A DNA stretch of 37,564 bases from IMG/VR virus record IMGVR_UViG_2684622670_000021, positions 1 through 37,564 of that record; one strand, 5' to 3'. Every line of letters starts with the position of its first letter. The first letter of the stretch is position 1. The notes beneath the pieces were generated by a model. That model searched no databases and had not been told where the DNA came from. It saw nothing but the letters and a program-made list of their open reading frames with translations. This DNA is from a virus (taxonomy: Duplodnaviria > Heunggongvirae > Uroviricota > Caudoviricetes). This document shows, in pieces, positions 1-36,682 of the stretch. The position numbers and the translations under genes are program-made.

Positions 1-1164
1 TTACACATCATTAGTACCTTCCTTATTTTTTGACTGGGACAAATTTGGGACCGATGGGTTCAGGATCGAGTCTATTTGCCGTGCGTGTTCGGTAAGGTGA
101 TTAGGTGCAAGGTGAGCATATCGACGAACCATTTCGATAGACTCCCAGCCTCCCATTTCCTGTAACACTGACAACGGGACTCCGGCTTGAACCAGCCAAC
201 TTGCCCAGGTGTGTCTCAAGTCGTGAAATCTGAAATCATCAATACCAGCCCGTCTCAGCGCCGCTTTCCAGGCTGTGTTTGCGTCATACCGCATCTTCCT
301 GACTGTTGGCGCTTTCGTTCCGTCTGGTTTGGTACAGCTTTCCTTGTACACAAATACCCAACGGTGATGATTCCCGATTTGTTTTTTCAATACGCGACAT
401 GCAGTATCATTCAGCGCAACGCCAATTGCGCGGTTTGATTTACTCTCTTCCGGGTTTATCCATGCCACCCGGCGCTGCATATCTATTTGTTGCCATTCAA
501 GGTTGATGATGTTCGAGCGTCTTAGGCCTGTTGCCAGTGCAAATTCAACAACAGACTTTAATGGCTCCGGACATTCATCAATCAGCCTTTGTGCTTCATG
601 GGGCTCCAGCCAGCGGATCCGTTTATTCTTTGGTTGGGGCACTTTAATAATTGGTGCCTTATCCAGCATTTTCCATTCACGCTCTGCGGCTCTTAGTAGG
701 GCCTTTATAAATGAAAGATGCGTAGCCTTCGTTGCAACGGACGCTGGTTTTGGCGTGTATTCTGGAACAGGTTTCCCTTTTTTTCTGCATGCTTCTGCCC
801 TGAGTTTCCAGTTTTCCTCATGACGCCGGTTCGTCATTTTCTGCATTGCTGAATAAATTTTTGATTCAGTAATGTCTCTTAGTTGCATTCCTGCGAAATG
901 TTGAAGCCAGAATCCGATCCGGCTTTTGTCATCGTCCAGTGATTTTTTATGTGCTTTCTCTTCAAGCCACCTGACACACGCTTCCTCGAACGTTATATCA
1001 GGTATTTCACCAAGTTTGCTGACCCGCCATGCTTCAGCCTTTAGCTTGTCATGGAGTTCTGTCGCCTGCCTTTTGTCCTTTGTTCCAAGAGACTGTTTAA
1101 ATCTTTTACCGTTCGGCAATGTGAAACTGGCGTACCATATTTCACCTCTGCGGAAGAGTGACAT
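1..1164 (-). CDS. int: Tyrosine site-specific integrase (P22-like Int)
   Basis: 387-aa ORF with the C-terminal tyrosine-recombinase signature ([15 protein letters not shown]...VRRYAHL); N-terminus [22 protein letters not shown] matches P22-type Int from memory. Sits at the prophage edge with its 3' end at the window start. Confidence 0.9.
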
Positions 1165-1391
1165 TTTCTTTCCTCTGTTATGCCATCACCCGCGCTCACC
1201 TGGACAGTATGCAGCGGAGACTGAAGAGCCGCAATGCAGGCTTGTCGTGTTGTGAGGTAAGGAGATTTATTCTTAGTGGGATCTTTGCGTGTTGCCTGAA
1301 GACGCCCTGTGCGTATCCAGTTAATGGCAGTCGGTCTGGATATCTTGAGAAAATGACAGGCCTCATCGAGTGTGAGGCTGTATGGCTCCAT
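1041..1391 (-). CDS. xis: Excisionase (Xis)
   Basis: Internal ATG at 1391 shares a TAATG overlap with the stop of the upstream ORF. Product [36 protein letters not shown] is a P22-like Xis DNA-binding fold; 3' end overlaps int as in lambdoid phages. Confidence 0.7.
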
Positions 1392-1696
1392 TATTTCACC
1401 TCTTGCTGTGACATTGTTGAAAAATGGATACCAGCTCGTTGCTGCCAGACGATCCAACCGAGAGTCATATCCCATGCCATGTATTCGTTATCGCCGTTTT
1501 TTGCTCTCCGACGATCTACTAAGTCACCGAAACGCTTTTCCATGAATAATTCATAAGCTTCGCGTTCATCTGGTTCTACTTCCAGAGATAGGAGTGCGAT
1601 TTCATAAGCACGGCGCTCAATATCGTCTCGCACGTCAAGGCTGCTGATACGCTCTTTAATTTCTTTAATCAGTTCTTTGTCGGTAAAAGTGGTCAT
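1391..1696 (-). CDS. Hypothetical early-left protein (101 aa, YfdT-like by size and context)
   Basis: ORF translationally coupled to its neighbours (ATGA/TAATG overlaps); acidic protein-like composition. Homology not verifiable here. Confidence 0.5.
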   Translation of the reverse strand: MTTFTDKELIKEIKERISSLDVRDDIERRAYEIALLSLEVEPDEREAYELFMEKRFGDLVDRRRAKNGDNEYMAWDMTLGWIVWQQRAGIHFSTMSQQEVK

Positions 1697-2058
1697 TATG
1701 CTCCAGCCTCCGGTGCTTTTGGCATTACTGCCCAGTGAGTGATATTGACGTTTTCAAGGTCCCCGACCTGAAATGTCCACTGCCATTCTCCGGTTTCTTT
1801 TTGTCCCCAGGTGTACCAGAGAGAACGCCAGCCAATTAGCCAGCCTTCTCCGTTAGCATCGAATAACAAAACACTTTCATTTGCTGGTGGCAGTTCAGTT
1901 GACACTGGTATTACTTTGTTTTCCTGTGCTGCACATTTAGCTTCAAGCGCATCGAATTTACGCACTAGGTATTCAGCATCTGTTTCATTTACTTTCAGAT
2001 CTCGCGGTACACATCTCCCACGAAGAAACCCTTCCATTTCGAAAACATTCATGCGCAT
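1696..2058 (-). CDS. Hypothetical early-left protein (120 aa, YfdS-like by size and context)
   Basis: ORF in the leftward operon; stop overlaps the start of the downstream gene. Confidence 0.5.
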   Translation of the reverse strand: MRMNVFEMEGFLRGRCVPRDLKVNETDAEYLVRKFDALEAKCAAQENKVIPVSTELPPANESVLLFDANGEGWLIGWRSLWYTWGQKETGEWQWTFQVGDLENVNITHWAVMPKAPEAGA

Positions 2059-2585
2059 TTGCGTAACTCCGATAACTCGTTAAAGCGTTCCATAAACATC
2101 CCGTAGGCATGGCCCGGAGCCAGTGGAATCACGTTGAACATCTCTGTTGCCGGGATACCTTCCAGTACAGGCCAGAAAGAGCCATCATCAAGCCCGAGAT
2201 CGCGGCGTTCGGTTGCCAGCATGATGAGATCGGCATATTTCACGGGCGTACTCATAACTGGGGGTAACCCGTATTTCTCACGGATTACGGCGTCTATTTT
2301 TTCTTCCATTTGTTTATAGTCAGGAAGAAGGCGTTTCAGTGGTGCGGGAATGTCCTGGCAATACGCTTCTGTTGCATCATGCATTAACGCTTCAAAAGCA
2401 AATTCCTGCGGCACCAGCTGGCTGCAAAGAACCGCATGTTGGGCGACGCTGTAGAAGTGCGAAAGATGACCGGCAAAGCGACAGATATTTGAAAGGGAAA
2501 CCGCGATATCGTTAATATCGATGTCGTCTTTATTTATCCTGTCATAATAAAAATGCTTCCCGGAAAAAGTTTTAATAAATGACAT
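2049..2585 (-). CDS. HD-domain phosphohydrolase (YfdR-like 5'-deoxynucleotidase)
   Basis: H...HD...E motif (AQHAVLCSQL...LMHDATEAY). Start placed at the ATG preceded by GGAGAA rather than the upstream ATG at 2612. 178 aa, matching CPS-53 YfdR from memory. Confidence 0.6.
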   Translation of the reverse strand: MSFIKTFSGKHFYYDRINKDDIDINDIAVSLSNICRFAGHLSHFYSVAQHAVLCSQLVPQEFAFEALMHDATEAYCQDIPAPLKRLLPDYKQMEEKIDAVIREKYGLPPVMSTPVKYADLIMLATERRDLGLDDGSFWPVLEGIPATEMFNVIPLAPGHAYGMFMERFNELSELRKCA

Positions 2586-2712
2586 TTTGTTCTCCACGTA
2601 TATGCGCTGCACCGCGCTGAATTCTGGTAAAAAGAATCCCTCACCATCCGGCGATTATTGAGTAAATTACGTTTCCATAAATGCCCCCGCAGGGGCATTT
2701 GCAGTAATGAAA

Positions 2713-3537
2713 TCAGGCGGTGAAAGTACCAATAAATGTTTCTACTTTGCTGTCCTTGAATTTCTCAACAAGCAGATCACGAAATTCGTTAGCCATTTCT
2801 TCCTGCACCGCCTCCAGCTGAATAATGCGTAGAACCAGTACAGGACGATCGCCAGTGATAATACTGAGGCGTAATTTAAACGGACGTTCTTTCAGACCTT
2901 CAAACGGAACGCATTTAAATTCAAATGCCACTGGCATAATGTCTTTGGTCTTCGCTTCGACAGACTCCATCAGGGAGCGTTTGCCGCTGAAGTCATTATC
3001 TTCAAAATCAGCGGTCTGGTTTGCTTCAATCGTGATTTTACGGACAGCCGCAGCCGCTTTTGTTGCCTGAATAGCGTCACCATTAGCATCAAAGCCCACA
3101 AGATAGTCGGCCCAGTCTTCAATCCATTCTGCCAGTGACTTCTGGGAGTTACGCTCGCCGTTAACAGACAACAGAGCAGAGAACGGTGCTGTCTTTTTCA
3201 GTTTGAGTGTGGCGGTGTTATCTGCGTGACCTGGTTCATCAATAGTACCCAGGTTAAGCACACTGACGGCACGCATATTATCAGCATCGATAAAGCAGCG
3301 GGTGCCTTCATCTGCAAGATCTTTAGAATAACGGGTAAAGTCATCGATGCTGGCAGTGGAAAGCGCACCACGGAAACGGAAGCGATTTAAATTAAATTTT
3401 TCCAGATCATGAATGCGGAAATTCTCAGGCAATGCCACAGCATCGGCACCAATCTTACTGATAATTTCATTAACACCCTGAGCAGAAATAAGGGCATGGA
3501 TTTGATTAATTGCGGTTGCGTCTAAGTTCTGAGACAT
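2713..3537 (-). CDS. DUF2303/YfdQ-like prophage protein
   Basis: 274-aa ORF in the leftward early operon; size and sequence character recall the YfdQ family of CPS-53-type prophages. Function unknown. Confidence 0.55.
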
Positions 3538-3602
3538 AATAAGTCCTCACTATATAAAGATATTCAGTGATGAGATAAATAATCAGTTAATTAAAAACGA
3601 TA

Positions 3603-3965
3603 TTAACGACCTGCTGCGCGGAGTTTTCCGTCAGGTTCACCGGCAAGAGTCAGTAACTGTCCCTGGTCTTCCTGCAGAATAGTCAGGCGACCACCGCGAT
3701 TGACATACATCGGCGTTTCGGTGGTGTCTTCTTCGGAAATTTTCCCGCGGTTAGTCGGGCGAACATATGAGAGTTTGTGTTTGATTTTCACTCGGTTCTC
3801 ATCAAACGGTTCGATTTCCAGGTTGAGCGAGACCTTACCTTTGGTTTTCGTGTTCATCACACCTGAAGCGACTTCACTGAGAACTGCGCCGATTTTGGTT
3901 TCAAATACGCCGCCGTCCAGCTCCCCGATAAATGCCTGCACATCAGTACTGCGTTCGCTAGCCAT
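3603..3965 (-). CDS. Hypothetical early-left protein (120 aa)
   Basis: Start chosen at the ATG preceded by AGGAG (MASERSTDVQAF...). The longer 226-aa ORF extends into GC-rich sequence that does not look protein-coding. Confidence 0.5.
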   Translation of the reverse strand: MASERSTDVQAFIGELDGGVFETKIGAVLSEVASGVMNTKTKGKVSLNLEIEPFDENRVKIKHKLSYVRPTNRGKISEEDTTETPMYVNRGGRLTILQEDQGQLLTLAGEPDGKLRAAGR

Positions 3966-4433
3966 TTTGCTGCTCCTCATCATATCGACCCTGCAAGGTC
4001 GGTTAGTTTCTCCACAAAACAGAGAAGAACACCTGCGGTGACTGCCGCCCGGATGGATTGGGTTATGAGCCCGTCGTCCGGTGATGCTCTTCTCTGTTTT
4101 GTAAAAAGGACGGTACCAGCCGGAAGCAAGGGTACAAGCTGGTACCGCCAAGACTACACACAGCATAAAGTTGTGGTGCCGGGTGCCTCCCGGTGCCTGG
4201 CGAAGGTTGCACACCAGGCGGGTGGGTATCCACAGAAGGTCGACTGTCAGCCTCAACCTTAACCCGCGTGCGCTGAGCCGCATTCACCACAACGCTAAGG
4301 ATTCTCTCTGGTTGAAAATACTTAGCTGTTATGTGCCTGCTTTTAGCCACATCAGGCGAGGTGGACCTAGTTATTCCCCAACAACAAGGATTCGGTTAAT
4401 CTGGTTATCCCCAACAACGCAAAAGGAAAAGAA

Positions 4434-4868
4434 ATGTCCGGTAATATCTATACGCTGTACAAATCCCACTGTGAAAATGTTGGAAAGTATCGGGGCATTG
4501 AAATCAGTGGGGTAGTGTCATCAGTCGAAATAAGCAAAGTTGAATCAAGGGCAACATTACTTACTCTTTTGGACCTTGTCTTACATGAGTACCGGAAGAA
4601 ATTCGGCACTCCCTATAATCAGTTGAATGGGAAAAAGGCTCTGGTTCACCTTATTCTGATGAAGCATCACTGGATGCCAAAACAGATTAATGAGATGAAA
4701 TTTGATGAACTTCTTCTTTCAATTCAGGATGAACTCACACTTGATAAAATAAGCGTAACCGCCCAGAAATTTTTAGATTATCGAGACTGGAGATCACAAA
4801 TTCATCACTTTGATGATTTTGACGAAAATGAATGGGATCCTAATTTGTCTGCACAATATCTAAAGTAA
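4434..4868 (+). CDS. Hypothetical protein (144 aa), rightward moron within the leftward early operon
   Basis: Strong SD (AAAAGGAAAAGAA then ATG); AT-rich relative to neighbours; opposite orientation to surrounding pL-operon genes; two 15-bp direct repeats immediately upstream. Confidence 0.5.
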   Translation: MSGNIYTLYKSHCENVGKYRGIEISGVVSSVEISKVESRATLLTLLDLVLHEYRKKFGTPYNQLNGKKALVHLILMKHHWMPKQINEMKFDELLLSIQDELTLDKISVTAQKFLDYRDWRSQIHHFDDFDENEWDPNLSAQYLK

Positions 4869-5046
4869 CATCCTGTGATAAAACCGTGATTTCCTGATCC
4901 AGTTTTTTTAAGGAGTCTATTGTTTCCTGTCGATAAGACAGCACTTCACGAAGCTGGTTTATAGCTGCCAGCTTCTTTGTCATCCACTCATAAATTTCCT
5001 CATCTGTGTAGCCAGGCGCGACGATTTTGGGTTCTGTTTTGTGCAT
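4840..5046 (-). CDS. Hypothetical small protein (68 aa), first ORF downstream of pL
   Basis: ATG preceded by AGGAG; 3' end overlaps the convergent 144-aa gene by 29 bp. Not arginine-rich, so not obviously an N-type antiterminator. Confidence 0.4.
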   Translation of the reverse strand: MHKTEPKIVAPGYTDEEIYEWMTKKLAAINQLREVLSYRQETIDSLKKLDQEITVLSQDVTLDIVQTN

Positions 5047-5105
5047 TTCACATCTCCTCAAGTTATCAGTTACTTGTTGATGGGGACCAGATTGTTAAAG
5101 AGCTA

Positions 5106-5131
5106 AGCGTCCTGTAGGGCGCTTTTTTGTT
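5106..5131 (+). terminator. Intrinsic terminator (7-bp GC stem, tetraloop, T5 tract)
   Basis: AGCGTCC-TGTA-GGGCGCT followed by TTTTTTG on the + strand; no T tract on the complementary strand. Confidence 0.5.
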
Positions 5132-5294
5132 GCTAACGAATCATCCTGGACTTCATATGCCCCAGGCGGCTACTTCGTGGGCGTCCTGCCTGTTCGTTTT
5201 TGACATTTACTGACTGCTTACGACACATGCACCGTGTTGCAACCAGATTTTGTTGTAATCCTGTAGTTGGTCTGGAACAAAAGATAAAATTAAA

Positions 5295-5331
5295 TTGCGA
5301 TATATGCAAGTGATGTTTGCGAAATATGCAA
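5295..5331. promoter_or_regulatory. OL operator region: two 15-bp sites TTGCGATATATGCAA and TTGCGAAATATGCAA
   Basis: Two near-identical imperfect palindromes (TTGCG-N5-TGCAA) 22 bp centre to centre, left of cI where pL/OL is expected; the same motif recurs in the cI-cro intergenic region. Confidence 0.5.
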
Positions 5332-5340
5332 ATTTATAGG

Positions 5341-5365
5341 TAATAAAAAGCCACCTTTCGGTGGC
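5341..5365 (-). terminator. Intrinsic terminator downstream of cI
   Basis: Hairpin GCCACC-TTTC-GGTGGC followed on the minus strand by CTTTTTATTA, about 20 bp after the cI stop. Confidence 0.5.
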
Positions 5366-5385
5366 CGATGGATGGGATATTGAGG

Positions 5386-6078
5386 TTAATTATGTCTCTT
5401 AAGGGTTTGCGACTGACTGATTAAGACCTTTCCAAAGACCATGAATCGGTGTTCGTTTTCGCTAGTAATTCCCCATTCACGGTAAATCTGGTTATCAGAA
5501 ATCACCAGCAGTTTGTCAGGAATCATTTGAAGTCTTTTAACGTATATTTTGTCATCAAAACCAAAGACATATATACCATCACCATCAAACTGATTGATGC
5601 TGACATCAACGAAGATGAGATCTCCTGGCTCAATGGTTGGACACATACTGTCCCCACGAACGTTGATAACTTTGATGTGATTGGCTGGTCGTCCGCCGAA
5701 CATTGATACAGCATTATCAGTTCTGTATTCGATGGCATGAATCACATCAATGACATCACCGCCCTGGATAAGGCCATTTCCCGCACTGGCACTGATATCC
5801 AGCATTTCAATACGGAACACATCCTTCACCTGCGCAACATCCTCATTATTACTGTTTTTATATACAGTATTACTTTTGTGGGCAGAGGTAAAGAGATCAG
5901 CAATATCAACACCTAAGCTCTTGGCAATATTACTCAGTGTTTGTTCGGTAAATTGTTTTTGCTTACCCGTTTCTAAGCGCGAGATGTTCGCCGCATCTAC
6001 TCCTATTGCTTCAGCGAGATCGGCGATTTTCATGTTCTTCGCTTGGCGAAGTTGTCTGACTCGGTTTCCTATGTTCAT
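5386..6078 (-). CDS. cI: Prophage repressor cI (HTH plus S24 LexA-like peptidase domain)
   Basis: N-terminal XRE-type HTH (QLRQAKNMKIADLAEAIGVDAANISRLETGK); C-terminal S24 motifs (Ala-Gly site in SASAGNG, catalytic Ser in GDSMCPTIEPGDLIFVD, downstream Lys); divergent from cro. Confidence 0.9.
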   Translation of the reverse strand: MNIGNRVRQLRQAKNMKIADLAEAIGVDAANISRLETGKQKQFTEQTLSNIAKSLGVDIADLFTSAHKSNTVYKNSNNEDVAQVKDVFRIEMLDISASAGNGLIQGGDVIDVIHAIEYRTDNAVSMFGGRPANHIKVINVRGDSMCPTIEPGDLIFVDVSINQFDGDGIYVFGFDDKIYVKRLQMIPDKLLVISDNQIYREWGITSENEHRFMVFGKVLISQSQTLKRHN

Positions 6079-6098
6079 GCGTTTATTACATTTCTTTA

Positions 6099-6165
6099 TT
6101 GCGTGATAAGCAAATCAACTTGCGCAAAATAATTGCGTGAAATAACATGCATAACGCGCAATATT
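6099..6165. promoter_or_regulatory. OR operator / pR-pRM region
   Basis: Contains TTGCGTGATAAGCAA (6099-6113, same motif as OL), the palindrome TTGCGCAA (6120-6127) and further TTGCG/CGCAA half-sites between the divergent cI and cro starts. Confidence 0.5.
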
Positions 6166-6175
6166 TGGAGGGCAT

Positions 6176-6436
6176 ATGCAATCACTATTACGAAATGTGC
6201 GTAAGGCGCATGGTTTCACTTTGCAGCATGTTGCTGCGGGTGTTCAAGTCAATCCAGCGACGTTGAGTCGTATTGAGAGGCTGGAGCAGATTCCATCTAT
6301 CGAGCTTGCAGAACGTTTAGCCAATTTTTTTAAGGGTGAAGTCAGCGAAATGCAGATTCTTTATCCGGCACGTTTTCAATCTAGCCAAAACCAGAATGGG
6401 TTTAAACCACAGGAACAGGAGGTGAACCGTGGGTAA
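6176..6436 (+). CDS. cro: Cro-like HTH regulator
   Basis: 86-aa ORF divergent from cI with SD GGAGG; HTH (FTLQHVAAGVQVNPATLSRIERLEQ). Confidence 0.8.
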   Translation: MQSLLRNVRKAHGFTLQHVAAGVQVNPATLSRIERLEQIPSIELAERLANFFKGEVSEMQILYPARFQSSQNQNGFKPQEQEVNRG

Positions 6437-6980
6437 GCATCACTGGAAAGTAGAAAAACAGCCTGAGTGGTACGTGAAAGCTGTCAGAAAAACTATCGCA
6501 GCGTTGCCGGGGGGGTACGCTGAAGCTGCTGACTGGCTGGATGTAACAGAGAACGCATTATTTAACCGCCTTCGTGCCGATGGCGATCAGATTTTCCCGC
6601 TGGGATGGGCAATGATTTTGCAACGTGCTGGTGGAACTCACTTCATTGCTGACGCTGTGGCGCAGTCTGCAAATGGCGTCTTTGTGTCTCTTCCTGACGT
6701 CGAGGATGTGGACAACGCCGATATTAACCAGCGCCTGCTGGAAGTCATTGAACAGATCGGCAGTTATTCAAAACAGATTCGTTCAGCAATTGAAGACGGT
6801 GTAGTGGAACCGCATGAGAAGACAGCAATTAACGACGAGCTGTACCTCTCAATTTCGAAGCTGCAGGAGCATGCAGCACTGGTCTACAAAATTTTTTGCA
6901 TTTCAGAAAGTAATGACGCCCGCGAGTGTGCAGCTCCGGGCGCCGTGGCGTGTCGTGACTGTGGAGAAACTAACGCATGA
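6429..6980 (+). CDS. CII-like regulatory protein (phage 186 CII / CP76-type), tentative
   Basis: GTG start with AGGAGG SD immediately after cro; position and size fit a CII-type activator. Family assignment is from memory only. Confidence 0.5.
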
Positions 6981-7315
6981 ACAGTTTAACAACACACTAC
7001 CGTCGCTCGCAACTGATTGCGCTTCCTGTACCGGGTGGAAAAGCGAAGGTGGAGTATTGCTATGCAGTAAATGTACCAGGTGACAGGGAAATTGTAACCC
7101 ACAGCTTTGCAGAGTGGGCTGTGGGTGATTTCAACCGGCAGAAGGAGACAGTCCTTTGCGACAAGTTAACCGCTGGTTCAAAGATCACTACGGAGTGCCC
7201 GTCAGAGTCATTCGTTGGGAGCCGGAAACACAACGGGTTATCTACCTCCGCGAAGGCTATGAGCATGAGTGCTTCAGCCCGCTCGAACAGTTTCGTCGTA
7301 AATTCAGGGAAATAG
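6977..7315 (+). CDS. Hypothetical protein, possibly frameshifted
   Basis: ATGA-coupled start. The N-terminal ~60 codons look protein-like but the C-terminal half is low-complexity, while an overlapping frame (7156-7335) encodes a protein-like peptide ending at the next gene's start. Confidence 0.35.
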
Positions 7316-7324
7316 AGGTCGGTC

Positions 7325-8266
7325 ATGAGCACTAAATTAACCGGCTATGTATGGGATGGTTGCGCTGCATCAGGCATGAAATTATCCAGCGTGGCAATTA
7401 TGGCCCGCCTGGCTGATTTCAGTAATGACGAAGGTGTGTGCTGGCCATCAATTGAAACCATTGCCCGCCAGATTGGCGCGGGGATGAGTACCGTCAGAAC
7501 GGCTATCGCACGGCTGGAAGCAGAAGGCTGGTTAACGCGTAAGGCGCGTCGCCAGGGTAACCGCAATGCGTCGAATGTTTATCAGCTTAACGTTGCGAAG
7601 CTTCAGGCAGCGGCATTTTCTCAACTGTCAGATTCTGACCCGTCAAAATCTGACGCATCAAAATCTGACCCGTCAAAATTTGATGCGTCGAAATCTGGCA
7701 AAAAAGCGGGTTTTCACCCGTCAGAATCTGGCGGGGATCCGTCAGTAAAATCAAAACATGATCCGTCAGATAAAAAAACTTCTCGTCCGGACGCTTCGCA
7801 ACCGGACACGCAGACGGATGAACAGGATTTTTTAACTCGCCATCCTGATGCGGTTGTATTCAGCCCTAAAAAGCGCCAGTGGGGAACGCAGGATGATTTG
7901 ACCTGCGCACAGTGGCTCTGGAAAAAAATCATCGCCCTGTACGAGCAGGCCGCCGAATGTGACGGCGAGGTGGTTCGTCCCAAAGAACCGAACTGGACAG
8001 CCTGGGCAAACGAAATTCGCCTGATGTGTGTGCAGGATGGTCGTACTCACAAACAAATCTGCGAGATGTACAGCCGCGTCAGCCGCGATCCGTTCTGGTG
8101 CCGTAACGTGCTCAGCCCGTCGAAGCTGCGGGAAAAATGGGATGAGCTTTCCCTGCGCTTATCGCCGTCCGTAAGCACGTACACCGAAAAACGCGAAGAC
8201 CCGTACTTCAAATCCAGTTACGACAACGTGGACTACAGCCAGATCCCGGCAGGATTCAGGGGGTGA
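7325..8266 (+). CDS. Replication initiation protein (O-like) containing the iteron array
   Basis: 313-aa ORF with an N-terminal winged-helix-like segment, internal iterons encoding SDSDPSKSDASKSDPSKFDASKS, and a C-terminal domain; position corresponds to lambda O. Confidence 0.65.
   Translation: MSTKLTGYVWDGCAASGMKLSSVAIMARLADFSNDEGVCWPSIETIARQIGAGMSTVRTAIARLEAEGWLTRKARRQGNRNASNVYQLNVAKLQAAAFSQLSDSDPSKSDASKSDPSKFDASKSGKKAGFHPSESGGDPSVKSKHDPSDKKTSRPDASQPDTQTDEQDFLTRHPDAVVFSPKKRQWGTQDDLTCAQWLWKKIIALYEQAAECDGEVVRPKEPNWTAWANEIRLMCVQDGRTHKQICEMYSRVSRDPFWCRNVLSPSKLREKWDELSLRLSPSVSTYTEKREDPYFKSSYDNVDYSQIPAGFRG
7626..7731. repeat. Iteron array (candidate replication origin) inside the O-like gene
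   Basis: At least six tandem copies of a ~14-bp unit CCGTCA(A/G)AATCTG(A/G), followed by an A/T-rich stretch at 7745-7785; the same layout as lambda ori within O. Confidence 0.55.
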
Positions 8267-8757
8267 TCATGAGTCTGTTAAATGACGTTCAGAAATTCAT
8301 TGAAGCCCATCCGGGGTGTACTTCCGGAGACATTGCGGATGCTTTTGCTGGTTACTCACGGCAGCGCGTTCTGCAGTCAGCAAGCAAGTTACGTCAGAGT
8401 GGGCGTGTGGCTCACCGTTGTGAAGGGGATACACGCAGACATTTCCCGCGCCTGACTGAGAGAGCGCAGGAGCCGGAACCACAACCAGTTCGTGAAACCA
8501 GACCTGCGCGCAATTTCTATGTCGGCACTAACGATCCCCGGGTGATTTTGTGCCTGACCCGCCAGGCGGAAGAACTGGAGTCAAGGGGCTTATACCGTCG
8601 TGCTGCAACCGTGTGGATGGCGGCATTCCGTGAAAGCCACTCCCAGCCAGAACGAAACAATTTTCTGGCGCGTCGTGAGCGGTGCTTACGGAAAAGCAGC
8701 AAGCGCGCTGCATCGGGTGAAGAGTGGTATCTGTCAGGGAATTACGTGGGGGCTTAA
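8263..8757 (+). CDS. Hypothetical protein (164 aa), possibly regulatory (PerC-like C-terminal segment)
   Basis: ATGA-coupled to the O-like gene; C-terminal AEELESRGLYRRAATVWMAAF resembles PerC-type regulators. Low confidence. Confidence 0.45.
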   Translation: MIMSLLNDVQKFIEAHPGCTSGDIADAFAGYSRQRVLQSASKLRQSGRVAHRCEGDTRRHFPRLTERAQEPEPQPVRETRPARNFYVGTNDPRVILCLTRQAEELESRGLYRRAATVWMAAFRESHSQPERNNFLARRERCLRKSSKRAASGEEWYLSGNYVGA

Positions 8758-9410
8758 TGAGTAATAAATATTGCCAGGCGCTGGTGGAACTGCGGAATAA
8801 ACCAGCCCATGAACTGAAGGAAGTGGGAGATCAGTGGCGCACGCCGGATAACATTTTCTGGGGAATTAACACCCTGTTTGGTCCGTTTGTTCTGGATCTG
8901 TTCACTGACGGTGATAACGCCAAATGTGCCGCGTATTACACGGCGGAAGACAACGCGCTGGCGCATGACTGGTCAGAACGTCTTGCGGAGCTTAAAGGTG
9001 CTGCCTTTGGTAATCCCCCATACAGCCGCGCCAGTCAGCATGAGGGGCAATACATCACCGGCATGCGTTACATCATGAAGCATGCCAGTGCCATGCGTGA
9101 TAAAGGCGGGCGCTATGTTTTCCTGATCAAAGCTGCCACCAGCGAAGTGTGGTGGCCGGAAGATGCAGACCATATTGCTTTTATTCGCGGGCGTATTGGT
9201 TTTGAACTGCCTGTCTGGTTTATCCCGAAAGACGAGAAGCAGGTGCCGACAGGAGCGTTCTTCGCTGGTGCTATTGCTGTTTTCGATAAGACCTGGAAGG
9301 GACCGGCAATCAGCTACATCGGGCGCGATGAACTTGAGACATGTGGTGAGGCGTTTCTGGCGCAGGTTCGCCAGCAGGCGGAAAAACTGGTCAGGGAGAT
9401 GGCGGCATGA
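8757..9410 (+). CDS. Phage DNA N6-adenine methyltransferase (Dam family)
   Basis: Catalytic NPPY motif (FGNPPYSRA); TAATG-coupled start (MSNKYCQALVELRNK). Confidence 0.8.
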   Translation: MSNKYCQALVELRNKPAHELKEVGDQWRTPDNIFWGINTLFGPFVLDLFTDGDNAKCAAYYTAEDNALAHDWSERLAELKGAAFGNPPYSRASQHEGQYITGMRYIMKHASAMRDKGGRYVFLIKAATSEVWWPEDADHIAFIRGRIGFELPVWFIPKDEKQVPTGAFFAGAIAVFDKTWKGPAISYIGRDELETCGEAFLAQVRQQAEKLVREMAA

Positions 9411-11939: not shown

Positions 11940-12305
11940 ATGCGTGATATTCAGATGGTTCTGGAGCGTTGGGGGGCATGGGCGGCGAGTGATAGTTCAG
12001 GCGTTGATTATTCACCTATAGCCGCTGGGTTTAAGGGACTTCTTCCCTATACAAGCAAGAAACGCTTGGCTTGTTCGGATAGTGATGCCTTAATTATTGA
12101 AGGTTGTCTTGCTCGTCTAAAGCAAAAAAGGCCGGACGAACATTCGCTTCTTGTTGCCCATTACCTATACGGTATCTCCAAAAGAAAGCTCGCCAAGGCT
12201 CGTAAAAAAGATGAGAAATTGATACGTATAGAAATACAGCTAGCCGAAGGATTTATTGATGGCTGCCTTTCCATGCTAGATCTAACATTAGATTTGGACG
12301 TTTAA
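11940..12305 (+). CDS. Q: Late-gene antiterminator Q
   Basis: 121-aa ORF (MRDIQMVLERWGAWAASDSS...) matching the phage antitermination Q family from memory; located after the nin-like genes and before the lysis cassette. Confidence 0.7.
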   Translation: MRDIQMVLERWGAWAASDSSGVDYSPIAAGFKGLLPYTSKKRLACSDSDALIIEGCLARLKQKRPDEHSLLVAHYLYGISKRKLAKARKKDEKLIRIEIQLAEGFIDGCLSMLDLTLDLDV

Positions 12306-12307
12306 TA

Positions 12308-12336
12308 ATACGCCCCTGCATGGGGCGTATTATTTA
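12308..12336. terminator. Bidirectional intrinsic terminator between Q and the KAP NTPase gene
   Basis: 9-bp stem ATACGCCCC / GGGGCGTAT with a 5-nt loop, flanked by A/T-rich runs on both sides; lies between two convergent stop codons. Confidence 0.55.
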
Positions 12337-13665
12337 CTGGATGAATGACATTTGATTAATATATTTTATCAATAACTCTCTGGGTGTAGTACTCCAAAAA
12401 TTTATGTGTTCATAATCAGTATAAACATTTGTGAATTTTTTAAGTTCTTCATCACTTTTAGGGGCAAATCGCTCATTAAGAGTAATACTGTCTTTAATTA
12501 TTCCGAAGAATACAATGGATATTTCAGGGATTTGCGATCTTCTCTCATAAGAATAAGGTATTTCTTTTATGTTAAGCAGGTCTGCTAAATAAGATATAGA
12601 TTCAGCGGTAATTTCTTGTTTTAGTTTTTCCTTGTTACCAAAGCAATGTATGAAGGCAGCTACGACAAAGATCATATTTATTAAAGGATTACTGCTTTTG
12701 TTCTCATCGTCGTTTAACAGTTGAAAAATGTTAAGATTGCGTGAAAATGTTTGTGTTTCACGTAATGATAAGTTGGTTCGTTGAATTAAATCACGGATAA
12801 AGCAACCTGATAATCTATTGATTTTATTCAATAAACTTGTTTTTTCTACAAGATAATCCCAATATATAACAGAGGCTTTACATACGTTGTGACCATTTAT
12901 CAAACATGTATCTGGAAGCGTGATGGTATATTTTATAAACTTGTCAAGATATTTTTGTGAGTTAATGCTGTAACCATAAATATGATTTATAGATGCTTTT
13001 AATTGTTCTGTGTTTGTAACTAAAATAAAAAAGACATTATTGATGTCAAAAATGTGTTTTATTGTTTCAATGACATTTGTTGAAAAACTCGGCTTACATC
13101 GGTCTAATTCATCAATTATAATTACGATTTTTTGATTTTTTGATATACTTTCGATGCAGGATTTAAGTGAATTTATGTTTTTCTCTGAGTCCATATGGTC
13201 TTCAAGCAAATTTTCAATAGTCCCATCTATTGCTGCATTGCTTGCTTTCTTCATCGCATCTTGGAATTCTTCGGCAACTTCACTAGCCTCCTGTCGTAAA
13301 AACCAACCTGCACCAGCTTTTAGTACCGTTTTTAAACCAAAGCGAATTGCAGGAAGAGATCTCTTAATGAAGTGTTGTTTTTCTTCCTCAGGCAAAATGC
13401 TGGCAATTGCAGAGGTTATGAGAAGTAATGGAGATTCTGCATGATCCCCTTTAAAGGCATCAATATAAACAACTTTAGATTCAGTTTCTTGCTCAATAAT
13501 GAGATTTTTCAGTTTGATACTAAATTCTGTTTTCCCTGTTCCCCATGCGCCGTCTATTACCAGTGGTGAAATGTCTGCCTCTGGTTTTAGCAACTTGATG
13601 ATATTTTCAGCGATGTTTCTTCGTTGGAACTCGTCACGTTCAGTGAAAGATAGTGTATCTAACAT
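12334..13665 (-). CDS. KAP-family P-loop NTPase (cargo/moron gene)
   Basis: 443-aa ORF with Walker A GAWGTGKT and Walker B followed by the KAP-typical DRC (IVIIIDELDRC); strongly AT-rich; antisense to the late operon. Confidence 0.75.
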   Translation of the reverse strand: MLDTLSFTERDEFQRRNIAENIIKLLKPEADISPLVIDGAWGTGKTEFSIKLKNLIIEQETESKVVYIDAFKGDHAESPLLLITSAIASILPEEEKQHFIKRSLPAIRFGLKTVLKAGAGWFLRQEASEVAEEFQDAMKKASNAAIDGTIENLLEDHMDSEKNINSLKSCIESISKNQKIVIIIDELDRCKPSFSTNVIETIKHIFDINNVFFILVTNTEQLKASINHIYGYSINSQKYLDKFIKYTITLPDTCLINGHNVCKASVIYWDYLVEKTSLLNKINRLSGCFIRDLIQRTNLSLRETQTFSRNLNIFQLLNDDENKSSNPLINMIFVVAAFIHCFGNKEKLKQEITAESISYLADLLNIKEIPYSYERRSQIPEISIVFFGIIKDSITLNERFAPKSDEELKKFTNVYTDYEHINFWSTTPRELLIKYINQMSFIQ

Positions 13666-13727
13666 AATATAAACCTATTAACTCCTACAGTAAAAAACGA
13701 ATAATACGACTTTGGGATTAAAAATCA

Positions 13728-13756
13728 TTAACGCGGTCCGCAAAAATTCTTGTAAT
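13728..13756 (+). promoter_or_regulatory. Candidate late promoter pR' (TTAACG -17 bp- TGTAAT)
   Basis: Sigma70-like hexamers with 17-bp spacing about 35 bp upstream of a strong terminator hairpin, the arrangement expected for pR'/qut/tR'. Sequence inspection only. Confidence 0.3.
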
Positions 13757-13788
13757 CTGTTAAGAGTGGTTACTTCGCCACACAGCTT

Positions 13789-13823
13789 AAACCCGCCGTC
13801 GAGCGGGTTTTGTCGTTTTTGTT
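13789..13823 (+). terminator. Intrinsic terminator (tR'-like) upstream of the lysis genes
   Basis: AAACCCGC-CGTCGA-GCGGGTTT followed by TGTCGTTTTTGTT. Confidence 0.55.
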
Positions 13824-13961: not shown

Positions 13962-14288
13962 ATGCCTCATAACCCAAATACCTGGTTGGAGTTGGTCCAG
14001 AGCTGGTGGCGTGGAGACACACCGCTGGGCGCAGTGATTATGTCGATTGTTATGGCTGGTTTACGTATTGCCTATTTTGGCGGTGGTGGGGGCTGGAAAC
14101 GAAAAACACTCGAAATTCTACTCTGTGGCGCTCTGACGCTGACTTTTGCATCCGCTCTTGAGTATGTCGGATGGCCTAAATCACTTTCTGTTGCCATTGG
14201 TGGTGGTGTTGGGCTGATCGGTGTCGATGCTATTCGTGGGGCAGCAATGCGAGTAATCGGTAACAAATTTGGTAGCTCGAAGGAGTAA
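13962..14288 (+). CDS. Putative holin
   Basis: 108-aa ORF with hydrophobic and Gly-rich segments immediately upstream of the endolysin gene. Confidence 0.6.
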   Translation: MPHNPNTWLELVQSWWRGDTPLGAVIMSIVMAGLRIAYFGGGGGWKRKTLEILLCGALTLTFASALEYVGWPKSLSVAIGGGVGLIGVDAIRGAAMRVIGNKFGSSKE

Positions 14289-15285: not shown

Positions 15286-16149
15286 ATGGAAAGAGGTGTG
15301 GTATTTAGTGCATGCGAATTACTTAAAACCGAGGATGGAAAAGGCATCCGTACAGGTAAATGGATTAGTCAATTAGAAATAAACTGTCTATGTCTTTATT
15401 GGGATAAACTAGTTTCACCCACTAATAATATTATACATACAGCATTAAATAACGAGGATGAATTAGAAAAATGTGGATTGCTAACCAGACCTGTATATAG
15501 ACATCATGGTTGTTTTGATGGCCAATATATGGCTGATTTTTATGCTGAAACTCATGCCAAAACAATAGATATACTTAGGCATGCGGATTCTTCTGTCGAT
15601 TGGCGCATGCATTTTTTAAGTGACCAAATAAACTTGGTGCCTGAATTATCTAGAACCTCAGAAGTGATACGTTTTGAGCTAGCAAATTTATTACCCGTTC
15701 CCACAGAAGATGTGCACCTACATGATATTCTTGATTTCAAGGAAAGAAGAAAACCTGAATTAATCGCTTTACATGAATATCTTGATGAGCTTTACTTGGA
15801 AATAAAACGTTCTGGTGATATCAATCTTCAGAAAGCAAAAGCTCTTTCTAATCTTAAACAAGCAATAAAGGATATTGAACGCTTAAATTGTGAAGTGTGG
15901 AAAAGTCCAATAAAATTTAGCATCTCTACTTCCTTTGAGTTCGATTTTTCACAAATATTTAGTCTGGCGGGAACTGTTTTATCTATGTCAGTAGATTATC
16001 CTTATAATGTTATTGGAGGGGTAAGTAGTTTTGCTTATTTTTTGGGAGGATGCATAAAAATAAAGCCACAATTTCAACAAGTGTTATCATTAGGTAATGA
16101 TAAATTAGTTTACATAAGCAAAGGAAAATCGGAGGGTATTATTTCCTGA
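15286..16149 (+). CDS. Hypothetical protein (287 aa), AT-rich moron between lysis and packaging genes
   Basis: Clear SD (AGGAGA) and ATG; markedly lower GC than the flanking lambda-like genes; no recognisable domain by eye. Confidence 0.55.
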   Translation: MERGVVFSACELLKTEDGKGIRTGKWISQLEINCLCLYWDKLVSPTNNIIHTALNNEDELEKCGLLTRPVYRHHGCFDGQYMADFYAETHAKTIDILRHADSSVDWRMHFLSDQINLVPELSRTSEVIRFELANLLPVPTEDVHLHDILDFKERRKPELIALHEYLDELYLEIKRSGDINLQKAKALSNLKQAIKDIERLNCEVWKSPIKFSISTSFEFDFSQIFSLAGTVLSMSVDYPYNVIGGVSSFAYFLGGCIKIKPQFQQVLSLGNDKLVYISKGKSEGIIS

Positions 16150-34832: not shown

Positions 34833-34850
34833 CGCGGTTTTATTTATTTT
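34818..34850. terminator. Bidirectional intrinsic terminator between the tail module and the acyltransferase gene
   Basis: AAAACCGCGC-AATA-GCGCGGTTTT with A4 upstream and a T-rich tract downstream; both convergent genes stop within or beside it. Confidence 0.55.
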
Positions 34851-35947
34851 ACTGCTAAAATTCGTTTTCTTAGCATCAGCTCTAAAGGCTCCTCAACTAA
34901 TTTATAAAGTATGATTGAGACTATGGTTATTATAACAAGGAGCGCTATTAAATAGAGTGGTCCGGGGTTATGTCCAAAGATTTTAAAGCAAAATAATATA
35001 ATGGGTTGATGAATTAAATAAAAAATAAATGATGATTTCCCTAATAGCTCTAGGGTTTTTGAACTGAGGATAGTATGAATGACTCCATTTCTTAGATAGA
35101 TGCATGAAGTAAAGAATATTACCATGGGGAGTAAATAATATAACGAATAACGTAGACTATTATTTATGTTGTTGCTATAATATATAGCTATTAGCAGAGG
35201 TAATAGTGAAATTAAAAACAAAAGGCTGTCGGCTGTCGGCTGTCGGCTGTCGGCTGTCGGCTGTCGGCTGTCGGCTGTCGGCTGTCGGCTGTCGGCTGTC
35301 GGCTGTCGGCTGTCGGCTGTCGGCTGTCGGCTGTTTTTCCAGCAAGCGTAAATAATCATGCCGCAAATAAATTCTACCAAGCGGCTTACTGGGAATATAT
35401 AATATAACCAGTGATTAAGTTCTTCTGTTTGTATAATTTTTAAAAAATATATAGTTAATAGTAGAGTTATAATTGATATTGCAGTGATTACTTTCTTTGT
35501 AATTGATGTATAAATCAACGGAATAAACATTAAATAAAAAAACAGCTCATCAGACAAAGACCATGATACACCATTTAATGAGAAGTAGTAATCCTCCTTT
35601 GGTATCCAACTTTGCATTAATAAAATATTTGTTAAGGTTTTTGAAAAATCAAAGTTCTTTAAGTGAATGGTTAGTAAAATAAATGGCATGGCTAATAATA
35701 GATGCATTGGAACAATTCTTGCCAATCTTAAAAGAATAAACTGTCTTTTACTTGTTACTTCATTTTTTAGCTTGTCTTCATATGAATATGAAAGAATGAA
35801 GCCAGATAAAATAAAGAAAAAGGAAACGCCAATAAATCCCTGGGAAAACATTTCTTTTACAAAAACACCAAAATAGTCTGTATTTAAATGGCATAAATAA
35901 ACCATTAATGCAGCTATAAATCTGAGTCCTGTTAAGTGGCGAAGCAT
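34844..35947 (-). CDS. Acyltransferase family 3 integral membrane protein (Oac-like) with in-frame heptapeptide repeat
   Basis: Multi-TM protein with the N-terminal acyltransferase-3 motif (RHLTGLRFIAALMVYLCH); ATG at 35947 preceded by AGAGG (track start at 35977 is TTG); very AT-rich; prophage-terminal position like oac/gtr loci. Confidence 0.75.
   Translation of the reverse strand: MLRHLTGLRFIAALMVYLCHLNTDYFGVFVKEMFSQGFIGVSFFFILSGFILSYSYEDKLKNEVTSKRQFILLRLARIVPMHLLLAMPFILLTIHLKNFDFSKTLTNILLMQSWIPKEDYYFSLNGVSWSLSDELFFYLMFIPLIYTSITKKVITAISIITLLLTIYFLKIIQTEELNHWLYYIFPVSRLVEFICGMIIYACWKNSRQPTADSRQPTADSRQPTADSRQPTADSRQPTADSLLFLISLLPLLIAIYYSNNINNSLRYSLYYLLPMVIFFTSCIYLRNGVIHTILSSKTLELLGKSSFIFYLIHQPIILFCFKIFGHNPGPLYLIALLVIITIVSIILYKLVEEPLELMLRKRILAVK
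35224..35334. repeat. Tandem heptanucleotide repeat (GGCTGTC)x15 plus partial copy, inside the acyltransferase ORF
   Basis: Counted directly: 15 perfect GGCTGTC units (35224-35328) plus GGCTGT. On the coding strand it is (GACAGCC)15 encoding five SRQPTAD heptapeptides. Confidence 0.95.
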
Positions 35948-36682
35948 CAATAACCTCTTGTTATGAAGATAAAGCAATTCAAAAGAGGCATTTTATGACT
36001 GTAGGGGATTGGTGTCTATATGAATGAGTAATCTGGTTTTTAAAATCTTCTTTAATTACAAAATAAACCTTTCTTAGGCTATAGATTTGTGGCTGTAACA
36101 CTGTGTGTCCACGACATTGAGACATCCTTCCGCTTTGCTATAGATGTGGAATTCAGGATCAAGCGATATCGGACTCATCCTCAGCACCACCCGGTTAATC
36201 TGGATAACGGGAGAAGGGAAGCGCTGCCAGAAGATGATGATGGTTACAGTTCTGCACTGGCTATTCTGCACTGGCTATATTCGTGGTGATCACTTACATA
36301 ATTAATGACGCCAGGAATACGGAGTTTGATGATTGCCTGGTGATGTGAGAAAAAACTCATACACACAAAGCTTTGCACTGGATTGCAAGGCTTTGTGCTA
36401 TTCGATAGCACGAGTTTGAATGAAAATCAGCCGTTATCGATTTTACGTATTTTTGTATGAGAGGATTTTTACCTCCTCCCACCGATCCTCCATAACTTTA
36501 CGACACTGTCTCTAGGACTGCTATGTGCCAAGAGCGGAATTTTCTAATATTATGCTGCATTCGTTTAAGGGGAGCAGATCAGCTAACGACTCCTACGTCC
36601 TGGGGAAAGGTCACATATGCTAAACAGCAGCTCAGCAAAGAGAAGAGCGAATTTGGTAACGGGAAACCGTTATGATATGAAT

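Follow-up and report, generated by a model that had tools for sequence, protein, structure and literature searches.

Several P-loop nucleoside triphosphatases (NTPases) of the KAP family have been described as single-gene systems acting against phages. EF_KAP and three other single-gene KAP proteins protect against phages, and both the Walker B motif and the C-terminal region of EF_KAP are required (PMC13552941). 'Reve' is an experimentally protective single-gene KAP system of P4 hotspots (PMC13586616), and PifA of the F plasmid excludes phage T7. The subject of this study is a gene of the same family in a 37,564-nucleotide stretch of viral DNA (IMG/VR record IMGVR_UViG_2684622670_000021, hereafter the window), which encodes 443 amino acids and lies antisense between the antiterminator gene Q and the lysis genes. 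A prediction made earlier from the DNA letters (the original prediction) had pointed to it as a candidate defence or exclusion module. That prediction described KAP NTPases as still uncharacterised, which no longer holds given the proteins named above, and the family of the window protein is itself catalogued, as PDC-S20; the value of the locus is therefore that of a clean experimental target and a well-defined hotspot, not of surprise. The cassette carrying the gene is probably a prophage moron that encodes a single-protein anti-phage system of the PDC-S20 family, acting by superinfection exclusion or abortive infection.

Like EF_KAP and Reve, the window protein is a single-gene KAP NTPase on a mobile element, and the C-terminal region of those proteins has no known function. 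EF_KAP is from Firmicutes and has two predicted transmembrane helices and a C-terminal region of 322 amino acids, whereas in the window protein transmembrane helices are missing and the tail is shorter. Reve was presented among systems that PADLOC does not recognise (PMC13586616), which argues against its being PDC-S20 in a comparison made by description. PifA shares with the window protein the KAP NTPase domain and the single gene on a mobile element, and it is also without transmembrane helices (PMC13001434). The PifA profile matched the window protein with an E-value of 6e-18 (residues 7-252 against positions 13-255 of 720), but the C-terminal parts of the two proteins are unrelated and the whole PifA architecture is not matched by a protein of 443 amino acids.

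RdrA of RADAR and BrxC of BREX gave no sequence-level match to the window protein. RdrA has about 800-900 amino acids and works with the deaminase RdrB, and BrxC acts within a six-gene system, whereas no partner gene is present at the window locus. QatA is also a KAP-type ATPase and showed weak similarity (PADLOC E 4.5e-12, residues 138-285), but with NCBIfam QatA the window protein scored 34.4 bits, where the cutoff is 600, and its locus is without QatBCD. Tmn, a defence system that likewise consists of one P-loop NTPase gene, carries two transmembrane helices within this domain and is currently assigned to the YobI family (PMC13001434); its profile gave no match at E<0.1, and the window protein has no transmembrane segment. 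With regard to position, the defence gene Tai of phage phi80, an antisense immune moron of a lambdoid late region, resembles the KAP cassette in lying opposite to Q-controlled late transcription, and such antisense placement was proposed to separate lysogenic from lytic expression (PMC11364771). However, Tai lies inside the late transcription unit and is overrun by late transcription, whereas the place of the KAP cassette is upstream of the late promoter, where the sole transcription that could run into it is early read-through coming from Q, with a hairpin in between.

Family and architecture of the KAP protein

The KAP assignment in the original prediction was borne out by a profile hidden Markov model search, in which Pfam KAP_NTPase (PF07693) matched residues 15-317 over positions 1-292 of 293 with 239.9 bits (cutoff 20; E 4.7e-71). 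The PADLOC model of PDC-S20 (PDLC04956) matched over the full length (residues 3-442 against profile positions 4-449 of 450, E 9.4e-177), and since nothing sets the protein apart, it is a member of this family. PDC-S20 is a computational candidate consisting of a single gene, as in the window. The RefSeq name of the protein is 'KAP family NTPase'. Both motifs that had been predicted were found, the Walker B motif given there as IIIDELDRC being the same as VIIIDELDRC, and the sequence agrees with the KAP-type pattern (GxxxxGK[ST]; hhhhDE with LDR(C)). The catalytic residues listed as invariant in Table 1 are so in an alignment of 30 homologues that reaches down to 38% identity.

At E<=1e-5 a word-indexed search recovered 2,144 relatives, which are spread over Enterobacterales and almost all have 440-447 amino acids, and an exhaustive profile search recovered 3,305 clusters (50% identity) at E<=1e-30, almost all of 440-470 amino acids and matched over the full length; a single-protein scan of genome contigs gave no relative. 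Judged from these sequences, PDC-S20 has many members, which share one short, fixed architecture and carry no fused effector domain. The relatives tested from both prophage slots and from a satellite-like element all scored as PDC-S20. The open reading frame (ORF) was intact in all homologues examined, and the ratio of nonsynonymous to synonymous substitution rates (dN/dS) between the window and Salmonella copies was 0.14 at a dS of 0.28, which places the gene under purifying selection.

Conservation falls steeply along the protein. In distant homologues residues 1-262 retained 53-60% identity, against 9-25% for residues 321-443, and none of the 123 columns of the latter region was invariant. 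This C-terminal region was modelled as helices, and it could be the specificity or sensor domain of the protein. The AlphaFold2 model as a whole had a predicted local distance difference test (pLDDT) score of 80.4 and a predicted template modelling score of 0.75, its weak part being residues 113-154; the insert between the Walker motifs (residues 93-177) was modelled as helices plus this low-confidence stretch. The insert holds a basic Gly/Ala-rich stretch, LPAIRFGLKTxLKAGAGW, which is nearly invariant among homologues, and no hydrophobic segment was found between the Walker motifs. No transmembrane segment was detected anywhere in the protein (highest 19-residue Kyte-Doolittle mean 1.53, residues 325-343), nor a signal peptide, and the protein is read as cytoplasmic. 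The solved folds nearest to the model are those of the defence ATPases RdrA (8fnt, 8fnu) and BrxC (9zll); a profile search of PDB sequences gave no match, and a search of viral folds in BFVD gave just generic ATPase matches with low TM-scores.

Cassette boundaries and the hotspot downstream of Q

The position claimed for the gene was confirmed, with Q and the holin gene on its two sides identified by Pfam. In phage PhiR49_2 the site is empty, and the Q stop codon is directly followed by a 92-bp element equal to window positions 13720-13811, while the corresponding flanks of cdtI and SfII surround other antisense ORFs. Because the flanks adjoin in the former and bracket other cargo in the latter, the insert is delimited to 12306-13719. 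It is made up of 28 bp, the 1,332-bp ORF and 54 bp, with no partner gene inside, in agreement with the original prediction. The late promoter is accordingly displaced from Q by 1,414 bp, where about 1.4 kb had been expected. A repeat search of the window found no transposon-like terminal repeats at the insert ends, and the direct repeats there (D6, 14 nt, 86%) were judged to be due to chance.

The AT-richness noted earlier was also confirmed, as the GC content of the ORF is 0.327 against 0.532 in the 5 kb to the left and 0.478 in the lysis genes to the right. KAP genes keep 33-36% GC in every host, a foreign composition which marks the gene as cargo and not as core. The bidirectional terminator predicted between the convergent stop codons was upheld in part: a perfect 13-nt hairpin fills the 28-bp gap between the stop codons of Q (12303-12305) and KAP (12334-12336) and folds strongly on both strands (-22.1 and -20.8 kcal/mol, one figure per strand), but its T-run is imperfect, and a role as terminator is plausible. 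The hairpin is missing from the empty site of PhiR49_2. The features of a moron are thus present, i.e., a cassette that is absent or replaced between shared flanks, a GC content of 0.33 against 0.53 and a cargo-specific hairpin, and the KAP gene appears to be an independent cassette of foreign composition that brings a candidate terminator of its own.

The interval between Q and the lysis genes had been described as a cargo hotspot in the original prediction. In a census of 80 viral contigs sampled through Q, and hence biased toward Q proteins near the window's own, 77 had a detected late-promoter core downstream of Q. The slot was empty in 11 of these 77 (core 1-12 bp from the Q stop), all of one Q subtype at 73-77% identity, and it was occupied in the other 66 by cargo of 693-2,223 bp with a GC content of 0.31-0.44. 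This cargo belongs to at least 15 real families, almost all antisense to Q, and KAP was present in only five of the occupied slots. The Q-late-promoter junction is a cargo hotspot. Hairpins of <= -10 kcal/mol occurred within 60 nt of the Q stop at 43 of 45 distinct occupied junctions, compared with 39 of 327 interior control windows, and those at other junctions lie in the equivalent place with unrelated sequence.

Between the same Q and holin flanks, E. coli genomes carry a TIR-TM protein (PADLOC E 1.7e-57), a PDC-M68A-like HNH protein, two hypothetical proteins, or no cargo at all; the slot of SfII holds PDC-M53A/B, and some cargos of the census match defence candidates, among them PDC-S42 and an Argonaute-associated restriction endonuclease-like domain. 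Several abundant families, namely a 280-residue protein (15 loci), two gene pairs (335+153 and 356+170 residues) and proteins of 331, 365 and 258 residues, were without any PADLOC match. The small partners of the two pairs look membrane-spanning. A recipe for finding new systems in lambdoid prophages follows from this organisation, i.e., taking the content from the Q stop to the GCGGTCCGC...TAAGAGTGG late-promoter core.

Relatives of the KAP gene were placed in context down to 42% identity. Of 398 viral contigs in which a relative is encoded, the best 80 were classified; the gene was convergent with Q in 51, lay between the CI repressor and integrase genes of P2/186-like phages in 27, where it is co-oriented with both, and was unclassified in two, one of them truncated. 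Nine homologue contexts included five convergent with Q, i.e., those of E. coli, Salmonella (92%), Citrobacter (65%), Enterobacter (46%) and Cronobacter (42%), and one in a satellite-like integrative element. No partner was conserved across the contexts examined; in some P2-type loci CI and KAP enclose small ORFs (a 61-residue YdcA-like ORF and ORFs of 160-169 residues), which are not conserved from one locus to the next and therefore were not counted as partners. Every context examined was a prophage or satellite-like element, and none was of the non-mobile housekeeping kind that the original prediction had named as speaking against it.

The Salmonella orthologue (Typhimurium contig AAYVPS010000009.1, 8001-9332, 92% identity, in a cluster of 2,139 sequences) is in a degraded prophage remnant with the order holin, KAP, Q, DUF968 and a 788-residue LRR/NEL effector, and an OafA-like acyltransferase is nearby. 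The remnant resembles what we take to be SPI-12, a pathogenicity island of Salmonella (sspH2), with STM2239 as Q and, presumably, STM2238 as KAP. STM2239 reportedly promotes SPI-12 transcription and fitness. The homologue of Enterobacter hormaechei (6001-7323) is in the satellite-like element (integrase, primase, AAA_25, Ash), and a pair of an nSTAND3/AAA ATPase and an S8 peptidase, another defence-like module, lies a few kb away. In E. coli SZQ1 (NZ_CP173996.1, 3685320-3688785) the Q-KAP locus is naturally disrupted by IS903B; in the annotation of this strain Q is listed twice and the KAP gene is called only 'P-loop NTPase fold protein'.

Probable anti-phage function and alternative explanations

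Anti-phage function best explains these observations, because the gene is cargo-like and sits in prophage defence slots, is co-oriented with the repressor and integrase in P2/186-like phages, has been retained in a degraded Salmonella remnant, joins a constant engine to a variable tail, and is akin to PifA, QatA, RdrA and BrxC. P2 hotspots are slots where prophages keep defence genes (PMC9122126, PMC13586616). The defence reading of the original prediction is supported as a candidate, and the phenotype itself would be expected by analogy, since experimental support for defence comes only from relatives outside PDC-S20 (EF_KAP and the three other KAP proteins, Reve and PifA).

A possible course of events can be proposed. 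In the lysogen the KAP gene would be expressed from a weak promoter of its own, with transcription running leftwards, in the direction away from the late promoter, and the hairpin at its 3' end would insulate it from early rightward transcription through Q. The product would be a soluble, PifA-like KAP NTPase in which the conserved N-terminal 260 residues, with the fold of the ring-forming RdrA, could act as an ATP-driven switch or oligomerisation module, while the hypervariable helical C-terminal 120-180 residues would recognise a component of the infecting phage. Recognition would alter both the nucleotide state of the protein and its assembly, and infection would be stopped. Candidate steps of arrest, tentatively ranked in this order, could be a PifA-like membrane or permeability lesion through the LPAIRFGLKTxLKAGAGW insert, consumption of ATP, or sequestration of a phage target.

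On the other hand, several points weigh against an anti-phage function. No experimental test of PDC-S20 was found in the literature, and PADLOC candidates were validated in four of eight cases in one study (PMC12881386) and in neither of two in another (PMC12409345). No recognisable effector domain is present in the KAP protein (no nuclease, TIR, protease or pore domain). A gene of 33% GC may be silenced by H-NS in the lysogen, a possibility raised in a preprint. A consensus scan yielded no promoter for the KAP gene, the promoter-like sites in the region numbering 8 against 7.1 expected from shuffles. The hairpin between Q and KAP is without a canonical T-run and, as this run is imperfect, a strict terminator rule leaves it unlisted. 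Moreover, a prophage carrying KAP would have to avoid triggering the system during its own induction.

The alternatives are each weakened by the spread of the gene over unrelated phage types, by the interchangeable cargo of the slot, or by the signs of selection. The one that survives best, although unlikely, is that of a lysogenic-conversion or fitness gene which benefits the host outside phage defence (in stress, colonisation, or interference with plasmids or conjugation) and merely uses moron slots. The retention of the Salmonella orthologue beside an LRR/NEL-type effector and an OafA-like acyltransferase would suit such a role, as would the acyltransferase gene near the right end of the window, another cargo of the conversion type. 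Toxin genes such as stx are likewise found downstream of Q in lambdoid phages. However, a cytoplasmic protein with neither signal peptide nor transmembrane segment fits this role less well, the nearest sequence and fold relatives of known role are all defence ATPases (PifA, QatA, RdrA, BrxC), the alternative cargos at the slot are defence-type proteins, and a hypervariable C-terminus suits a target in an arms race more than a housekeeping partner.

It is quite improbable that the KAP protein serves the cycle of the prophage itself (lysis-lysogeny, Q-dependent late transcription, replication or packaging) or counter-defence. P2/186-like phages, which lack Q, carry the same family between cI and int, and the Q slot is empty in 11 of the 77 related phages and elsewhere filled by unrelated cargos, so that the gene is dispensable and interchangeable; its foreign GC content likewise marks cargo. 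A selfish or decaying passenger without current function, tolerated by a slot that accepts insertions, could be suggested by the IS903B insertion at the locus in SZQ1 (at least one natural case) and by the occurrence of the full Q-KAP-holin arrangement in only 42 of 5,426 complete E. coli genomes, but it is hardly credible for an ORF that is intact in all homologues examined, with purifying selection, invariant catalytic motifs and thousands of full-length relatives.

Returning to the anti-phage moron, a more specific form of it can be put forward tentatively and with considerable doubt. PDC-S20 could be a complete one-protein immunity without a separate effector domain, in which the C-terminus binds a phage protein, the KAP engine forms an RdrA-like ring, and either the LPAIRFGLKTxLKAGAGW segment, at the place where other KAP proteins have transmembrane helices, becomes the effector (e.g., in a PifA-type membrane attack) or the ring burns ATP; separately, the Q-late-promoter junction of this Q21-like phage group would serve specifically for the exchange of antisense defence cassettes with their own terminators, and the unmatched cargos would be new systems. 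If defence is confirmed, the cassette would offer a compact (443 amino acids), soluble and effector-less KAP system of E. coli prophages, whose host is easy to handle genetically. It would then be well suited as a model of phage sensing and arrest of infection by KAP/PifA-type ATPases, a question decades old for PifA. The diversity of the C-terminus (9-25% identity on an engine of 55-60%) would supply ready-made specificity swaps. Prophage cargos of this sort shape which phages infect clinical and livestock E. coli and Salmonella.

Promoters and other genes of the prophage

The coordinates of the features discussed here are collected in Table 1.

Table 1. Features of the KAP locus and of other parts of the window (positions of the 37,564-nucleotide stretch)
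Feature	Positions	Strand	Remarks
Integrase	1-1164	-	
CI-like repressor	5386-6078	-	
Orphan Dam-like N6-adenine methyltransferase	8724-9410	+	Early operon; PADLOC MTase_II E 1.3e-157
Antiterminator Q, 122 amino acids	11937-12305	+	Pfam Phage_antitermQ E 1.8e-52; left border of slot
Perfect 13-nt inverted repeat, 5-nt loop; candidate bidirectional terminator	12304-12316 / 12322-12334		Between convergent Q and KAP stops
Inserted cassette, 1,414 bp	12306-13719		GC 0.328; boundaries by BLAST against PhiR49_2, cdtI and SfII
KAP-family P-loop NTPase gene, 443 amino acids	12334-13665	-	PADLOC PDC-S20; phrog_8614
Hypervariable all-helical C-terminal region, residues 321-443	12337-12705	-	Model helices, pLDDT mostly 72-93
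Walker B + DRC motif VIIIDELDRC, residues 181-190	13096-13125	-	D185, E186, L187, D188, R189, C190 invariant in 30 homologues
Walker A GAWGTGKT, residues 39-46	13528-13551	-	G39, W41, G42, T43, G44, K45 invariant in 30 homologues
Candidate KAP-promoter -10 hexamer TATTAT	13701-13706	-	Back-to-back with late promoter
Putative Q-dependent late promoter (pR'-like)	13720-13768	+	Abuts Q stop in empty-site phages
-35-like TTAACG	13728-13733	+	
Invariant inverted repeat within CGCGGTCCGCAAAAA, candidate Q-binding element	13732-13746	+	
Late-promoter -10 region	13751-13758	+	A13754 and T13758 invariant
Invariant TAAGAGT, candidate sigma-dependent pause element	13761-13767	+	
tR'-like terminator hairpin and T-run	13789-13820 (hairpin 13789-13810)	+	In terminator scan; -19.6 kcal/mol
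Lambda-type holin S, first late gene right of slot	13962-14288	+	Pfam Phage_holin_3_1 E 5.7e-25; RefSeq concurs
DUF6236 / phrog_23128 ORF	15286-16149	+	Late-operon sense; GC 0.339
Acyl_transf_3 acyltransferase	34844-35977	-	E 4.9e-31; local GC 0.29-0.38

In lambda, pR' consists of the promoter, a Q-binding element between the hexamers and, within the bases transcribed first, a pause signal that resembles a -10; it is followed by tR'. By analogy, positions 13720-13820 are the putative Q-dependent late promoter and its terminator, which agrees with the pR' and tR' elements placed to the right of the gene in the original prediction. The late-promoter core was invariant across 8 phages and is present as a single copy in the window. 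Its spacing to the pause element was 16 bp in 28 of 34 Q-slot loci (the window counted), and for the remaining six either the core or the pause element escaped detection at the thresholds used. The -10 region can be read in two registers, TGTAAT (13751-13756) or TAATCT (13753-13758), and the latter is favoured by the two invariant positions. The consensus scan missed the late promoter because its -10 is non-canonical, and the assignment therefore rests on comparative conservation and position. The tR'-like hairpin sits about 25-55 nt past the putative late start, and Citrobacter phages have another hairpin sequence at the same place.

The KAP gene is separated from the late-promoter core by 66 bp upstream. 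A TAT(T/C)(A/C/G)T hexamer is fixed in position upstream of KAP genes at 60-66% identity, with diverged surrounding sequence, which suggests that TATTAT in the window could be the -10 of the gene's own promoter. The predicted KAP start (near 13694) and late start (13762-13766) are about 70 bp apart, and with this back-to-back arrangement the two promoters may compete for or share upstream contacts.

The window is a near-complete SfV/SfII-like E. coli prophage, with a lambdoid early operon ending at Q, followed by lysis, terminase and head genes and a Mu-like contractile tail. In sequence its Q protein weakly resembles Q21, of which the structures 6jnx/6p18 are solved (E 0.005). The Dam-like methyltransferase of the early operon presumably has an anti-restriction or self-protection role for the phage. 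Stx-phage late regions can carry tRNA or small RNA cargo; an Rfam scan of the window gave no RNA family and ARAGORN gave no tRNA, so that cargo of this type is absent from the window.

Two further AT-rich cargos were observed. The DUF6236 ORF lies between the spanin and the HNH/terminase genes and had no PADLOC match; it was rejected as a partner of KAP, being absent from the Salmonella, Citrobacter, Cronobacter and P2-type KAP contexts. The acyltransferase gene follows the tail-fibre genes, and O-antigen-modifying genes of the Acyl_transf_3 kind are carried by serotype-converting Shigella phages.

A prophage of strain XH990 is up to 99% identical to the window, in mosaic blocks, and the first ~1.7 kb of the window is without a match in it; the Q ORF carries RefSeq annotation in this strain too. 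Beside the integrase of this related prophage, in the stretch 1-9403 to its left, XH990 has a pair of an RloB-family protein and an AAA ATPase, and further out a decayed P4-like satellite with an AAA ATPase plus HNH and an AbaSI-family endonuclease.

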